A DNA stretch of 64,000 bases from an uncultured Alphaproteobacteria bacterium (GCA_944390275.1 CALXPL010000006.1:28734-92733), one strand, 5' to 3'; counted from the stretch's first letter, positions 29,142 to 34,022 are shown. Numbers and translations: made by a program. The notes: generated from the sequence alone by a model not told the origin.

Positions 29142-29193
29142 AGTCCGATAATTTCGCAAAATTTGCCAATTTCAAAATCCTCAAAATCGGACT
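29142..29193. repeat. 52-bp imperfect palindrome AGTCCGATAAT...AAAATCGGACT (candidate recombinase attachment/binding site)
   Basis: The outer 8-bp arms are exact reverse complements. A second 52-bp site with the same arms and length lies at 33843..33894. Confidence 0.45.
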
Positions 29194-29735
29194 CGTTCAA
29201 AGTCTTAGAATACATACAAAAAAGCACTGAAAATGTGTCTCTTTATCTACTTACGCATAGGTTGAGTTTTTACCGCTCCAATTTGATGAATAACACGACA
29301 ATACAATTACATCAGATTCTTTTGAATGGTTATAACACATTGTAAATAGGTATTATTATGTTTTAAGCTCTGCAAAATTTTGCAAAAGTTGTATCCCATT
29401 ACTCCATAAACAACCCGTGGATAACCGGATTTGATAAAAGTAATAAAACCTATGCAAAATAAAACGGTTCTATCCATGGGTTAAAAAATGAGATGTTTAA
29501 AATAACTTATTGTCATTGATGTTAAGAGGTGTGTTACTCAAAAAACAGCCATCCATAAGTAAATATAGATAAGGGAAGATTATGTAAGTAACAGAGAAAT
29601 CGGAAAGAGAATTATTTAGTAAATTGAATAGGGTTAAAACTAAACTCTTTAACTGCATTAGTAACATAATATGGCTAAAAAAGCCTTTGTCATCTTTATT
29701 TCTATAATTTGCTATAAATACAAATTTTTTATGTG

Positions 29736-31346
29736 TTATTGTCTTTGTTGTTGATTTAAATTTATATTTATTCTGCTGTTTATGATTGTTTGTTCGGCCT
29801 GTTTTATGCGATTTTGATATCTTTTAATAACTTCAGCAGGTAATTGAGGTAGGTTTTTATCAGAAAGTTTTGCTGCATTAGTAAATCTTTCTCCAGTTTT
29901 ATAGTTAAATGCAACATATTCTCCATTTTCTCTATCTACAACAAATTTTGATATTGGGGTTCCATCTTTTTGTTTTTTTTCAAAAACAAAACAATTTTCA
30001 TGTTCTCCTACTTTTTCTTGTTTAATGGAAATGACGCTATCATTTTCTGTTATTTCAATTCCATTCCGCATTTCTGCTTTTACGAAAGCTTTATTTAGAG
30101 CTGTTCTTTGGTTGTTTTTTATTTGTCTTAATACATCTTCTGGTAAAGGAGCAAAATTCAAATCAGGATTATTGCTATATATTTTTTCCGGCTTTCCTCC
30201 TTGATAAAGATATGTTCCCGTAGATTTATTATATTGCAGACTAAATGTGCATTTTTTATCTTTATCAAAACCTTCTATATTTAACAAATTAGGATTCTTG
30301 GAATCTATTGAGTAATTGGCATTTTCTGTATTTTTTATCTCTATTAAAGATATTTTTGCATCGACAGATTGAGTAAATGGAACTTTTATGCCTTTTTCTA
30401 AAACAGATTGAGTACTTTGTTGTTTATTTTTATTCAAATTAAGATTTATATTTTTTTGTTGTGGATTTGGATTTTTTAAAACTTTCATACTATCCAAAAT
30501 GTCTTTATAAATAGTAAATTCACCAAGACTTAATGGGTGATTCTTTGTCGTGTTATTTAATATATCTGTTAAATTATGTGCCAATCTAGGATATATACCT
30601 TTTGCTTCTTCTATTAAATTTTGAATGTCAGCACGACTTTTTTCTGTAGCATAGTGTAAACCATCTTCTAATTTTTCCCCATCTAAAAGACTATTGCCGT
30701 TAGTTCTTACATATGGTTTTATTAATGAAGAGAGTATTTTTTTTTGTTCCTCTATTCTTTCATCAGAAGTGTAAATAACTATTGTATCTGGCCTTGAATA
30801 TGCTTCTCTTTGTGATTCGGCACATTTATATTGGCAATTATATTCTAAAGCAAATTTATCAAGTTTTTCAAATAAATTAGAATTAGGGTCTACATTTAAG
30901 ATAAAACGATGCAAGTCTTTTTTAGGATTATAGTTCGGAGATGTTTTGTACACCCAGCCTGATGCCACCAAACCATCGCCGAGAGAAATTTTTAAACCAT
31001 TTTCTTTAGCTTTCCAATTTTCAATAAGATTATAATATTCTCTATCCCCCATTTTCTTTTCATTATCAACATTTCGACGATTTCCATACATTCCTCTTGC
31101 CAGAAAAAATAATGAAACTCCCCCATTTTTTCCAGCTTGTTTTTGCAAGTTTTCTTCTATATTTTTTGCAAAATTTTTTTTCCCTTTTTCATCGATATAG
31201 TCAGAAAATAATTCTATTTTTCTTACTAATATTTCTTCTGGAGACAAGTTTAAATTGTTTTTCTTTAAAAGATCATCAAACCTATCCAAATAAGCCTCTA
31301 TTTCCGGGGTGATACCTTTAAATGCGGGGAAATCTTGATAATTCAT
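29736..31346 (-). CDS. large hydrophilic Q/N-rich protein, paralogue of 24921..26474 (effector-like)
   Basis: 536 aa. WVYKTSPNYNPKKDLHRFILNVDPNSNLFEKLDKFALEYNCQYKC...DTIVIYTSD...PYVRTNG...HPLSLGEF aligns with the 517-aa protein. The C-terminus is N/Q/K-rich. Confidence 0.55.
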   Translation of the reverse strand: MNYQDFPAFKGITPEIEAYLDRFDDLLKKNNLNLSPEEILVRKIELFSDYIDEKGKKNFAKNIEENLQKQAGKNGGVSLFFLARGMYGNRRNVDNEKKMGDREYYNLIENWKAKENGLKISLGDGLVASGWVYKTSPNYNPKKDLHRFILNVDPNSNLFEKLDKFALEYNCQYKCAESQREAYSRPDTIVIYTSDERIEEQKKILSSLIKPYVRTNGNSLLDGEKLEDGLHYATEKSRADIQNLIEEAKGIYPRLAHNLTDILNNTTKNHPLSLGEFTIYKDILDSMKVLKNPNPQQKNINLNLNKNKQQSTQSVLEKGIKVPFTQSVDAKISLIEIKNTENANYSIDSKNPNLLNIEGFDKDKKCTFSLQYNKSTGTYLYQGGKPEKIYSNNPDLNFAPLPEDVLRQIKNNQRTALNKAFVKAEMRNGIEITENDSVISIKQEKVGEHENCFVFEKKQKDGTPISKFVVDRENGEYVAFNYKTGERFTNAAKLSDKNLPQLPAEVIKRYQNRIKQAEQTIINSRININLNQQQRQ

Positions 31347-31452
31347 GGCTTTATCCTTATTATTCCATTTGGACTTTTATGATATATGTAATAACATATA
31401 TAATAAAAAAATACAACCCATAAGTTATCATTTAATGTTTTGATATCTGTCA

Positions 31453-31722
31453 TTAGTTTACACTTTCAATGAGTTTATTTGATACCAAAAACATTTTAAA
31501 ACGTCTTAATGCTTGTCTAACTGAAGTATGGCTTCTTTTACCATAACTTGATTTTTTACCGTTAATTTCATATTCAGGTAAAATTACAGATATGTTTGCA
31601 ACTAAATGTGACAGAGTATAGCCTTCTTTACGGCAAAGTCGTTCAATTCTTCCTTGATAATCAAAAGCGGTGGTAGGTCTGTAATTATTATTTAACAACC
31701 AATTTTCAAATTCCTTCAACAT
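31453..31722 (-). CDS. stand-alone phage-integrase SAM-like (core-binding) domain protein
   Basis: 89 aa. LKEFENWLLNNNYRPTTAFDYQGRIERLCRKEGYTLSHL...SVRQALRRFKMFL parallels the XerD/integrase N-terminal domain pattern (F..WL....S..T...Y...L.RF...L). There is no catalytic domain. AGGAG lies 7 nt upstream. Confidence 0.45.
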   Translation of the reverse strand: MLKEFENWLLNNNYRPTTAFDYQGRIERLCRKEGYTLSHLVANISVILPEYEINGKKSSYGKRSHTSVRQALRRFKMFLVSNKLIESVN

Positions 31723-32217: not shown

Positions 32218-32225
32218 ATATTCCC

Positions 32226-32259
32226 AACCTCTGTAAATTTCAGCAGAGGTTATTTTTTT
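32226..32259 (+). terminator. rho-independent terminator
   Basis: AACCTCTG-10nt-CAGAGGTT followed by ATTTTTTTT. Confidence 0.65.
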
Positions 32260-32441
32260 AACTTCGTGACGTTAACGACAATAACTTTTTATAACCTCGT
32301 TCCAATTGGGAATTAGGTTAACATTTTGAAATATCAGTAATTTGTTAGTGAAAAAATTGCAAGAATCTGAAAATAAATGCGTACTTTCCCAAAATAACAC
32401 GACATAATAACATTATCGGACTAATTTTGAGGAGTAATATC

Positions 32442-34022
32442 ATGTCTAAAAAGAATAAATATCAAAATATTGCAGATGAAGAATGTAAACAAGCCGTTAT
32501 ATTTGCTCGAGTTTCATCGGAAGAACAAAAGAAAGGAGCTTCCATTGATGCACAACTTAAAACGGTTATTGATTATTGTAACAATCACAAATTTAAGATT
32601 CTAGATAAATTCTCTATTGTTGAAAGTTCAACGCGAGGTGGGCGTTTAAAATTTTATGAAATGCTTGAGTTTGTAAAATCTCAAAAACACAAAACCGCTA
32701 TTGTTGTAAATTGTGTCGATAGATTGCAACGAGGATATAAGGAATGTGTTGAATTAGACGATTTGCGTAAACAAGGCAGAATAGAAATACATTTTTATAA
32801 AGAAGGTTTCTATTTGCATAGAGATAGTAATTCATCTGATATTTTACGTTGGGATATGGGAATTTTATCCGCTAAGATGTATGTAGGTGCTTTAAGAGAC
32901 AATGTTTTACGCAGTCAAGAATATAAAAGAGAAGCAGGACAATGGCAATCTTGCGCTCCGGTCGGTTATTTAAATATATCCAAAACCAAAACGACTCCGG
33001 CAGACATTGTGATTGATGAAGAGAGAGCCCCTAAGGTTAAAAGACTTTTCGAAGAATATGCCAAAGGCGGACGAACCTTGCAAGATATTACCAATCTAGC
33101 CAGAACCTTAGGATTATCTTCAAAAATGTGTCGTGTAAATAAAACAATTAGTCGAGCTCAAGTTCAAAACATACTGAAAAATACTTTTTACATTGGATAT
33201 TTTACGCAAAAAGGCAAAGTTTACAAACATCCTTATCCTTTATTTATAGATAAAGAATTGTTTCAAATTGTCCAAGATACTATGGAAGGAAGAAAACGAG
33301 CACCAAGTAAATTATATTATGGTGATAAACAATATATTTTTACAGGTTTAGTCAGATGTGGTTGTTGTGGTAGTTTAATGACTTGTGAAACTAAAGTAAA
33401 AGACGATAAACATTCTTACAATTATTTAAAATGTAACAAATTACGTTCCAAATGTTCACAAAAACCAATCAATGAAGCAAAAATCTTACAACAGCTTGAA
33501 AAAGAATTGTCATTACCTATTAACATTAGTGACACTATGTTAAAAAATATTAAGTCAGAAGTAAAAAAGCAACTCAAAGCCGAAAATATCAATACAGCCA
33601 ATCTCAAACGAGACATTACCATTAAATTAAATGAGCTTGATGAAGAAGCAAAAAACTTATTCCGTGGCTATATGAGAGGTAAATGCGATGAAAAAATGTA
33701 TAATGAATTAAAAACTGAAATTGAAATGGAAAAAGAAAAACTACAAAAAGATATGGATAGATACCTTGAGATTGATGCTGAAACTGATGAAATACTAGCA
33801 AATATCGCGGAAATAGCTGCAAATGTAGGAAAATTCTTAAAAAGTCCGATTATTTCTGAAAAAAGAGACATTTTGAAATTAATATTATCGGACTGCAAAA
33901 CTGAAGGAAAAAATATAGCGTTTTCAATAGTTAAGCCATTCGATGAACTACTAAAAACGCCTGAAACTGATAAATGGTGCCGCCAGCAAGAATCGGACTT
34001 GCGACCCCGTCATTACCAATGA
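32442..34022 (+). CDS. large serine recombinase (resolvase-domain integrase)
   Basis: AVIFARVSSEEQ carries the catalytic Ser. A resolvase N-domain is followed by a recombinase domain, a zinc ribbon (CGCCGS...CNKLRSKCS) and a long coiled coil. ATG 32442 with GAGGAG upstream is preferred over the track's TTG at 32427. The 3' 48 nt overlap the tRNA-Thr gene. Confidence 0.8.
   Translation: MSKKNKYQNIADEECKQAVIFARVSSEEQKKGASIDAQLKTVIDYCNNHKFKILDKFSIVESSTRGGRLKFYEMLEFVKSQKHKTAIVVNCVDRLQRGYKECVELDDLRKQGRIEIHFYKEGFYLHRDSNSSDILRWDMGILSAKMYVGALRDNVLRSQEYKREAGQWQSCAPVGYLNISKTKTTPADIVIDEERAPKVKRLFEEYAKGGRTLQDITNLARTLGLSSKMCRVNKTISRAQVQNILKNTFYIGYFTQKGKVYKHPYPLFIDKELFQIVQDTMEGRKRAPSKLYYGDKQYIFTGLVRCGCCGSLMTCETKVKDDKHSYNYLKCNKLRSKCSQKPINEAKILQQLEKELSLPINISDTMLKNIKSEVKKQLKAENINTANLKRDITIKLNELDEEAKNLFRGYMRGKCDEKMYNELKTEIEMEKEKLQKDMDRYLEIDAETDEILANIAEIAANVGKFLKSPIISEKRDILKLILSDCKTEGKNIAFSIVKPFDELLKTPETDKWCRQQESDLRPRHYQ
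33843..33894. repeat. 52-bp imperfect palindrome AGTCCGATTAT...TTATCGGACT (second copy; inside the 3' end of the recombinase CDS)
   Basis: Same length and outer arms as 29142..29193. It lies 81 nt from the tRNA 3' end. Confidence 0.45.

Follow-up and report, generated by a model that had tools for sequence, protein, structure and literature searches.

Serine integrases are valued in genome engineering and are thought to need only two short sites. Arrays driven by large serine recombinases (LSRs) are found at rlmH in the SCCmec/CcrAB cassettes, where they include recombinase-less units. In the Listeria A118/LI integrase, the zinc-ribbon domain reads a 9-bp motif that occupies half-site positions 16-24 in the element site (attP) and 11-19 in the chromosomal site (attB); the attB motif lies 5 bp nearer the centre, and the minimal attB is ~10 bp shorter than attP (Rutherford et al. 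2013, PMC3783163). Serine integrases are "not known for targeting tRNA genes"; tRNA use has been predicted for 14 of 297 elements, for which "experimental proof will be required" (Mageeney et al. 2020, PMC7192596), and the same paper cites phiRSM-type small serine recombinases as using tRNA 3' ends as attB (Askora et al. 2011, cited in PMC7192596). A further kind of arrangement is the integration-dependent immunity of mycobacteriophage BPs and its relatives, in which a tyrosine integrase acts on an attP inside the repressor gene (PMC3694055, PMC4557955). Here we describe an element of an uncultured low-GC gut alphaproteobacterium that carries an LSR gene running into an intact tRNA-Thr gene. 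It lies in a stretch of 64,000 nucleotides (GCA_944390275.1 CALXPL010000006.1:28734-92733; the window, with positions counted from its first letter), and the 8-mer ATCGGACT recurs through it, from position 29,142 into the tRNA gene.

The enzyme of the window resembles A118/LI (PMC3783163) in having catalytic, recombinase and zinc-ribbon domains with a coiled coil, and its sites resemble those of A118/LI in an 8-9-bp outer motif present in attP and attB, 5 bp nearer the centre in attB, with implied sites of ~50 and ~40 bp. It differs in that it appears to target a tRNA T-arm, in having the motif in the right half-sites only, in an attP that lies inside the recombinase open reading frame (ORF), and in extra 52-bp inverted repeats 89-111 bp from the crossover. 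With the phiRSM type it shares a serine recombinase with a tRNA-gene 3' end as attB; those enzymes, however, are resolvase-sized ('S-Core') and lack the recombinase and zinc-ribbon domains, whereas the window enzyme is a full LSR. As in BPs, attP lies in coding sequence and integration alters the C-terminus of a protein, but here the protein affected is the serine recombinase itself, whose new tail is antisense tRNA sequence. The 52-bp sites recall the accessory sites II and III of the res sites of Tn3/gamma-delta and Sin, which are recombinase-sized inverted-repeat sites beside the crossover on one arm, and resolvase structures (5cy1, 2r0q) are among the fold matches of our recombinase model; unlike res, the window's sites are deduced from sequence, and ~10 of 25 left arms are without one. 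We know of no LSR for which accessory sites are a feature. Tandem stacking at the 3' end of one conserved gene, recombinase-less units included, is shared with SCCmec, although protein subfamily, target and host are different and a single recombinase takes the place of the CcrA/CcrB pair. Our literature search found no described LSR with attP in its own ORF, with a tail swap on integration, or with co-evolving 52-bp inverted repeats.

Crossover core and motif spacing at the tRNA-Thr gene

The recombinase is a bona fide LSR, because it has the three LSR domains and its structural model matches full-length serine integrases. All three Pfam families score above cut-off (Resolvase PF00239, 53.7 bits against a cut-off of 23.3; Recombinase PF07508, 47.9 bits; Zn_ribbon_recom PF13408, 36.7 bits), and the protein matches PHROG 95, 'integrase', at 2e-63. 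Residues R23-V24-S25, with Ser25 as the nucleophile, are invariant among 74 homologues, and the zinc-ribbon cysteines C306, C309, C331 and C338 are likewise invariant in recombinase homologues. An AlphaFold2 model was built on P0007, a 96%-identical homologue with a long tail (predicted local distance difference test score 79). It consists of a catalytic domain, the long helix E, a recombinase domain, a zinc ribbon and a two-helix coiled coil (predicted helices 364-411 and 417-460); in a Foldseek comparison with the PDB its best full-length matches are the SPbeta, Bxb1, PhiC31 and LI integrases, with E values from 5e-20 to 4e-11. At the sequence level, phmmer against the PDB returned only spurious RecA-repeat matches, similarity to solved LSRs being too low, and the NCBIfam similarity to CcrB is weak (85 bits, well below cut-off). 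The gene listings of the window locus and related loci contain no tyrosine integrase; the sole recombinase is of the serine type.

To define the recombination sites we compared ~60 related loci, among them 34 loci of recombinase relatives from genomes, 11 from exact-protein look-ups and six from a metagenome pattern scan. Two sequence types make up the left arms: one is the 3' end of the recombinase gene (P), the other a flank that contains a terminator (B). The right arms fall into two types as well, formed by the tRNA (B') or by GAGATACTATGCAATTATCGGACTAATTTCTATGATGATTTTAAG of the element (P'). Every pairing of left and right arm is found, always meeting at the 9-bp core AAATGGTGC: P-B' (attR) in the window and most loci; B-B' (attB-like) in L040; B-P' (attL) in L015, L017, L036 and L012; and P-P' (attP-like) in L013-left, L026, L027, L037, L039 and L046-L051. 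The attP junction reads GATAAATGGTGCGAGATACT and the empty attB reads TTAAAAATGGTGCCGC. Four junction types at one core are the classical signature of site-specific recombination, and the element would thus insert at the tRNA-Thr 3' end by crossover within AAATGGTGC.

The spacing between core and motif is strict. From GGTGC to ATCGGACT the distance is 11 nt in every tRNA context (31 distinct ones) and 16 nt in P' (18 distinct contexts); a single case has 17, and between 5 and 24 nt no other distance occurs in any locus. With the GC that closes the core on its right taken as the crossover dinucleotide, the 8-mer would span positions 13-20 in B' and 18-25 in P', corresponding to sites of ~40 and ~50 bp. 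The chromosomal right half would then be the acceptor and T-arm of the tRNA, with its motif 11 nt from the core, and the element right half would be P', with its motif at 16 nt. Such a 5-bp shift would allow the enzyme to tell attB from attP, as shown for the Listeria LI integrase. The most fitting role for the copy at 33992, in the T-loop, is accordingly that of outer motif in the B' half-site, and ATCGGACT is probably the word by which the LSR recognizes B' and P'. The domain that reads it is probably the zinc ribbon.

The first-pass annotation, made from the sequence alone, had placed the 33992 copy in the T-stem/loop of the tRNA, as ARAGORN and Infernal agree, and had proposed a half-site family derived from, or targeting, the T-arm. 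The targeting half of this proposal is supported by the 11/16-nt spacing from the core, which matches the geometry published for LSRs, while the derivation from a duplicated piece of tRNA does not hold: P' and B' share their immediate flank, the 14-mer GCAAnnATCGGACT, and beyond it P' shows no relation to the tRNA and hence is no duplicated tRNA end. Motif copies as duplicated tRNA 3' ends are ruled out by these unrelated flanks together with the different spacing.

The target itself is atypical. Aligned by Infernal with the consensus GGUUCgAaUCC, the tRNA-Thr has the T-loop GUCCGAUUC, with C at position 55, where U is near-universal. This T-loop is invariant in the 31 distinct tRNA contexts, which come from related species, and it coincides exactly with the recombinase motif. 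The recombinase ORF and the tRNA gene converge, overlapping by 48 nt at 33975-34022. The tRNA's own terminator has been moved by the insertion to 29.2 kb, and read-through from the tRNA would be antisense to the recombinase mRNA, making silencing in the integrated state possible.

The six occurrences of ATCGGACT or its reverse complement that the first-pass annotation listed in 29142-33999 were all reproduced exactly on recount: 29142(-), 29186(+), 32415(+), 33843(-), 33887(+) and 33992(+). The extended 11-mer ATTATCGGACT is likewise exact at 32412, 33884 and 29142(-), the first of these just before the recombinase start codon, as had been noted. The window holds eight copies in 64 kb against 1.1 expected, a count reached in 0 of 100 shuffles, and beyond the island they lie only at 16060 and 57790. 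The density is 0.92 per kb in 27501-34050 against 0.035 across the remaining window; the chromosomal flanks of 24 related genomes, 184 kb in all, have 0.022 per kb, against 0.021 expected from base composition. The suggested local enrichment therefore stands, at ~26-40-fold, and the copies at 16060 and 57790 are at chance level, because the density in the flanks matches the expectation from composition. Two further strings that had been given as motif variants upstream of other island genes do exist, each one position from where they had been placed (CAATTATCGGGCT... starts at 28600 and CAATTATCGAATT... at 27637); they belong to decayed attL junctions and are not promoter elements.

Paired 52-bp sites, the P' coding tail and sister subfamilies

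A feature that had passed unremarked is that four of these copies form two pairs with the same geometry, 8 + 36 + 8 = 52 bp. They are thus full inverted-repeat sites, here called A and B, and not isolated half-sites. Site B lies within the recombinase 3' coding region, where its arms are read as AGT CCG AT. (SPI) and.TA TCG GAC T (LSD). Among 36 distinct in-frame homologues the arms have zero diversity at five of five silent third positions, against a mean of 0.239 outside them, where only 26% of third positions are invariant. Two of the three TCG codons of the gene fall in motif copies. Of 40 distinct 3' ends, 35 have the two arms exact, and one lineage has ATCGAACT. Site A is non-coding, in the left (B) arm. 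Its exact arms and exact 36-bp spacing are kept in L015, L017, L036 and L040, with one mismatch in L024 and L042, while spacer and flanks in these six loci have diverged to ~50% identity. Site B begins 132 nt before the TGG of the core and site A 110 nt before it, a difference of 22 bp or ~two helical turns; overall, 13-15 of the 25 left arms of core-P' junctions have the repeat, at a distance of 89 or 111 bp from the core. Along the tRNA strand, a rho-independent terminator directly follows the tRNA (L040). Because this terminator lies between site A and the core, site A appears to belong either to the flank that originally lay downstream of the tRNA or to a recombinase-less unit, at its right end.

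The 52-bp sites may be accessory binding sites of the recombinase, an assignment to which we give somewhat less than even weight. Sites A and B would then bind additional recombinase dimers, as accessory or regulatory sites left of the crossover.

The position of attP has a consequence for the protein. Read in frame from the recombinase (...DKWC), P' encodes a tail of 26-40 residues, (E/A)ILC(N/S)YRT(N/K)(F/N)Y(D/E)DFKxLxRKIE..., which forms two helices (509-542) in the AlphaFold2 model. The full tail is present in 18 of 20 junctions, some of which have a left arm other than the recombinase gene. Downstream of the motif, variation in P' by codon position is 7.1 at third positions versus 4.9 and 3.6 at the other two, the pattern of a coding sequence. 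In contrast, the 24 nt from core to motif hardly vary, whatever the codon position, which is what a DNA-binding constraint on top of the coding constraint would produce. Protein databases hold two isoforms: one of 514/526 amino acids (aa) with an antisense-tRNA end (e.g. RQQESDLRPRHYQ), and one of 540-548 aa with the P' tail. Many database entries (P0061-P0120) end in translated antisense tRNA (..DSNQRHTD, ..DLNHRPSGYEPDELPDCSTPR). Since attP is inside the recombinase gene, integration would swap the C-terminus of the recombinase, exchanging the conserved tail (...WC-EILCNYRTNFYDDFK...) for an antisense-tRNA peptide.

Homologues at 40-50% identity also end in antisense-tRNA peptides (...WLGQLDSNQRHTD, WYLWPDLNQH, WLRGMDLNHRPSGYEPDELPDCSTPR), and we fetched four such sister loci, L052, L054, L055 and L057, the last two from one subfamily. 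Every one has the 8-N36-8 inverted repeat, as in the window 132 nt before TGG. The arms, AGTCCGAT / ATCGGACT in the window at tRNA-Thr, are AGTTCGAT / ATCGAACG in L052 at tRNA-Asn, AGTTCAAA / TTTGAACT in L054 at tRNA-Met, TGTTCGAT / ATCGAACA in L055 at tRNA-Leu, and AGTTCGAT / ATCGAACT in L057, the P-P' form of the L055 subfamily. Both arms change together, altering conserved residues as they do so (SPI..LSD to SSI..LSN to SSK..LLN); a constraint at the DNA or RNA level therefore overrides that on the protein. The arm hexamer equals the T-loop hexamer of the target in the window (TCGGAC), L052 (TCGAAC) and L054 (TTGAAC) and differs from it in L055 (TCGAAC versus TTGAAC), so that the match is exact in three of the four lineages with a known target. 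Strict covariation of repeat and T-loop across the whole family was thus rejected: it holds in part, and protein tails suggest more exceptions, such as LSD with DSN tails. The P' 8-mer of L057, ATCGGATA, lies in the same register as in the window, at TGG + 19.

The single copy before the recombinase start codon is kept at the same position in most homologous loci. It may be either an operator-like site or a relic P'; a functional site is favoured over a relic because L055, too, has a version of the motif, ATCGAACT, ahead of its recombinase gene, at a distance of ~100 nt. The copy may be autoregulatory, and would serve the recombinase gene as such a site. A scan for promoters and terminators found fewer promoter-like sites than in shuffles and was uninformative on this site. 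A module, ATAACACGACA(T)AATA..., occurs twice in the island, at 32394-32422 before the recombinase gene, where it ends in the exact motif, and at 29285-29315 at the left end of the element, with the degenerate TTACATCAGATTC.

Competing explanations

Several observations weigh against the interpretation of ATCGGACT and its pairs as LSR sites. The inner portions of P' and B' do not resemble each other, and a hand comparison found no copy of the motif at the symmetric position in the left half-sites of attP or attB for any plausible centre; the crossover sites are therefore strongly asymmetric, unlike those of textbook LSRs. Nor can the central dinucleotide be placed inside the 9-bp shared core. 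The ~10 left arms of core-P' junctions without the inverted repeat mean that it is not required in every left arm, and it may be needed only on the element side; an 8-bp RNA stem could also form between its arms. In L057, of the tRNA-Leu subfamily, the P' 8-mer matches the tRNA-Leu 8-mer at only 3 of 8 bases, so that identity of all copies is not universal and may be special to the window's subfamily. Finally, we sought the excised circle among metagenome contigs and found neither a terminal overlap nor a circular contig. The search yielded six more junctions of recombinase end and P', several of them clearly chromosomal tandem arrays, and such junctions may all be tandem arrays.

Could the motif copies instead be passive relics, that is, tRNA 3' fragments left by successive integrations, together with chance or protein-driven matches, all devoid of present function? 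The decayed junctions at 27621-27680 and 28541-28663, the tandem arrays common in related loci and the GCAAnnATCGGACT shared by P' and B' would fit such a history. We nevertheless consider it very unlikely: outside the 14-mer P' is unlike the tRNA and its motif is in every case 5 bp farther from the core, there is no tyrosine integrase and the shared core has only 9 bp, site A retains exact arms and spacing in diverged non-coding DNA, and the silent positions of site B are invariant. Two other classes of element were also rejected. A tRNA island of a tyrosine integrase does not agree with a recombinase of the serine type only, with ends that share just AAATGGTGC and with a P' that holds no tRNA copy; an integron does not agree with the lack of a tyrosine recombinase and with unit boundaries that are core-P' junctions.

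A role of the 52-bp repeats as RNA, in which an 8-bp stem forms in the mRNA of the recombinase or in read-through transcripts of the tRNA and governs stability or translation, would account for the compensatory covariation of the arms across subfamilies, and stems are indeed predicted, with z-scores of -2.5 to -3.6. It would not account for a 36-nt spacing that is invariant even in non-coding site A, since the length of a hairpin loop is normally free. In addition, the interior is unpaired in L015, the ATCGAACT of one lineage gives a C-A mismatch on the mRNA strand, and the arms share their word with the single-copy half-sites in P' and B'. We regard control through RNA as unlikely. Binding of the motif by another protein of the element (the 61-aa ORF, or the 89-aa or 42-aa product), with the copies as operators or directionality-factor sites, also seems improbable to us. 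Conservation of the 61-aa ORF does go along with that of the recombinase in the different subfamilies, and a motif copy stands just before the recombinase ATG, with the L055 version likewise upstream of its recombinase gene; yet the 61-aa protein has no DNA-binding family match, the ~52 bp spanned by 8-N36-8 equal the footprint of an LSR dimer and not of a small regulator, and the 11/16-nt rule from the core is specific to LSR geometry. As for sites A and B being the attL and attR crossover sites of a 4.7-kb element at 29168-33868, they do have direct orientation and equal geometry and flank the recombinase and cargo. However, neither is a hybrid, A and B are separate sequence families in all loci, and all arm exchanges in the ~60 loci take place at AAATGGTGC. 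The sole A/B fusion (L040) joins at the left 8-mer and not at the centre, in a deleted pseudogene. This idea is scarcely credible, and we rejected it.

Taken in its widest form, the LSR interpretation would describe a family of LSRs in gut Alphaproteobacteria that departs from textbook serine integrases: it uses the T-loop as half of a strongly asymmetric attB, keeps attP in its own gene with a tail swap, has in its own coding sequence a res-like accessory dimer site that co-evolves with the T-loop and controls synapsis or direction, and builds tandem arrays of defence-gene units at tRNA genes, some units being recombinase-less. We put this combination forward only tentatively and think it rather unlikely to hold in all its parts.

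State of the island, cargo and significance

The coordinates of the features are collected in Table 1.

Table 1. Features of the island in window coordinates, and copies of the GC-rich element in related loci
Feature	Position	Strand	Remarks
Older, more decayed core-P' junction	27621..27680	+	CGGTGC..., ATCGAATT at 27642-27649; tail remnant ..SNYRINEYEDFKT and stop
Two small recombinase-less units	27853..29005	+	Genes of 207 aa and 96 aa, each after a decayed core-P' junction (gene calls in L001)
Decayed attL	28541..28663	+	B-arm-like sequence; core with 2-nt insertion (TGGTGTGC, 28582-28589); P' with ATCGGGCT (28605-28612); tail-ORF remnant
Site A	29142..29193	+	Same 8-N36-8 inverted repeat as site B; non-coding, left (B) arm
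B-arm remnant (decayed tRNA terminator)	29194..29241	+	Abuts internal element sequence; core and P' missing
Cargo genes	29736..31862	-	536, 89 and 42 aa; 536-aa ORF (main cargo) at 29736-31346
61-aa ORF	32032..32217	+	Directly upstream of the recombinase gene; kept alongside it across subfamilies
ATTATCGGACTAATTT	32412..32427	+	Single motif copy; 19 nt between end of its 11-mer and recombinase ATG (32442); P'-like immediate flanks
LSR gene	32442..34022	+	526 aa in integrated form; last 14 codons are the antisense strand of tRNA-Thr
Site B	33843..33894	+	AGTCCGAT-N36-ATCGGACT inverted repeat, 52 bp; recombinase 3' coding region
Crossover core AAATGGTGC	33972..33980	+	Here in attR; sole sequence common to attB, attP-like, attL and attR junctions
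tRNA-Thr(GGT)	33975..34049	-	Intact; ARAGORN, Infernal 70.1 bits
B' half-site	33981..33999	+	Acceptor 3' strand and T-arm of the tRNA; 8-mer at 33992-33999, 11 nt from core
GC-rich element copies	L006 398-601; L022 9532-9738; L036 8652-8854; L035 8780-8996		Traces in L024 and L042

Left of the recombinase-bearing element the island preserves older junctions. The sequence at 28541-28663 aligns with the attL of L015, L017 and L036 (translation ..SNYRANSYDDFKKIRRKI..), and the region 27621-27680 forms an 81-nt repeat family with 28586-28666. The element itself has lost its own attL: its B arm (29139-29237) runs directly into 29242-29308, a sequence found 0.7-1.2 kb inside the element in L012-L015. 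Thus L015 833-932 corresponds to window 29140-29237 and L015 2177-2241 to window 29242-29306, with core and P' between them in L015, L012, L013 and L014. The same arrangement without attL is present in several samples (L001, L002, L008, L009). Because of this loss, the recombinase-bearing element of the window is probably immobile or fixed.

The 61-aa ORF is present in all four sister lineages examined and is 39-47% identical to its counterparts in L054, L055 and L057; searches of Pfam, PHROGs and NCBIfam gave no family match. It is a candidate directionality factor or partner of the recombinase, and although it could alternatively bind the motif, it looks more like a directionality factor. 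The cargo ORFs have no credible match in Pfam, PADLOC, PHROGs or NCBIfam.

Related elements vary in cargo and arrangement. In L003 (615-4988) a 4.6-kb restriction-modification pair (RE_Alw26IDE and an Eco57I/TaqI_C methylase) is inserted exactly at window 31983/31984; the element is otherwise 96% identical to that of the window, and its recombinase gene is split into two ORFs. The cargo of the sister subfamilies is of defence type: methylases, reverse transcriptase, PLD, Fic, an EcoEI-type helicase and AAA_15/21 ATPases. The block 29296-31942, comprising non-coding modules and the 89-aa and 42-aa genes, has the opposite orientation to the recombinase gene in several related elements (compared: L017, L042, L050, L051), and a 34-nt inverted repeat, 74% complementary, lies at 29497-29530 / 32261-32294. 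In L040 (7551-8811) a recombinase pseudogene, which has lost 767 nt internally, joins sequence of the site-A type at AGTCCGAT, followed by an intact attB-like junction of terminator, core and tRNA; the fusion looks as if the short repeats of the two sites, B and A, had recombined.

Next to the tRNA gene in related loci there is an additional element, ~185 nt long and GC-rich, with the intact tRNA on one side and, on the other, a 19-bp direct repeat of the tRNA-Thr 3' end (TGGTGCCGCCAGCAAGAAT). Folding of four copies on the tRNA strand gave 57 pairs, 13 of them with compensatory changes, and no Rfam match; an Rfam scan of the island and L006 returned the tRNA only. The element looks like an undescribed structured RNA.

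The locus is most likely a rare case in which a member of the large serine recombinase class targets tRNA genes. The comparative set now at hand comprises four junction types, five recombinase lineages (in four target groups) and four tRNA targets, and from it the recognition word, the 5-bp offset between attP and attB and the possible accessory site can be read from sequence. For annotation, it follows that in many database entries of this family the last 13-30 residues are translated antisense tRNA; this C-terminal stretch varies with the insertion site and is no conserved part of the protein. For the organisms, elements with restriction-modification and defence-type cargo in uncultured human-gut Alphaproteobacteria mark a hotspot of defence-gene exchange.

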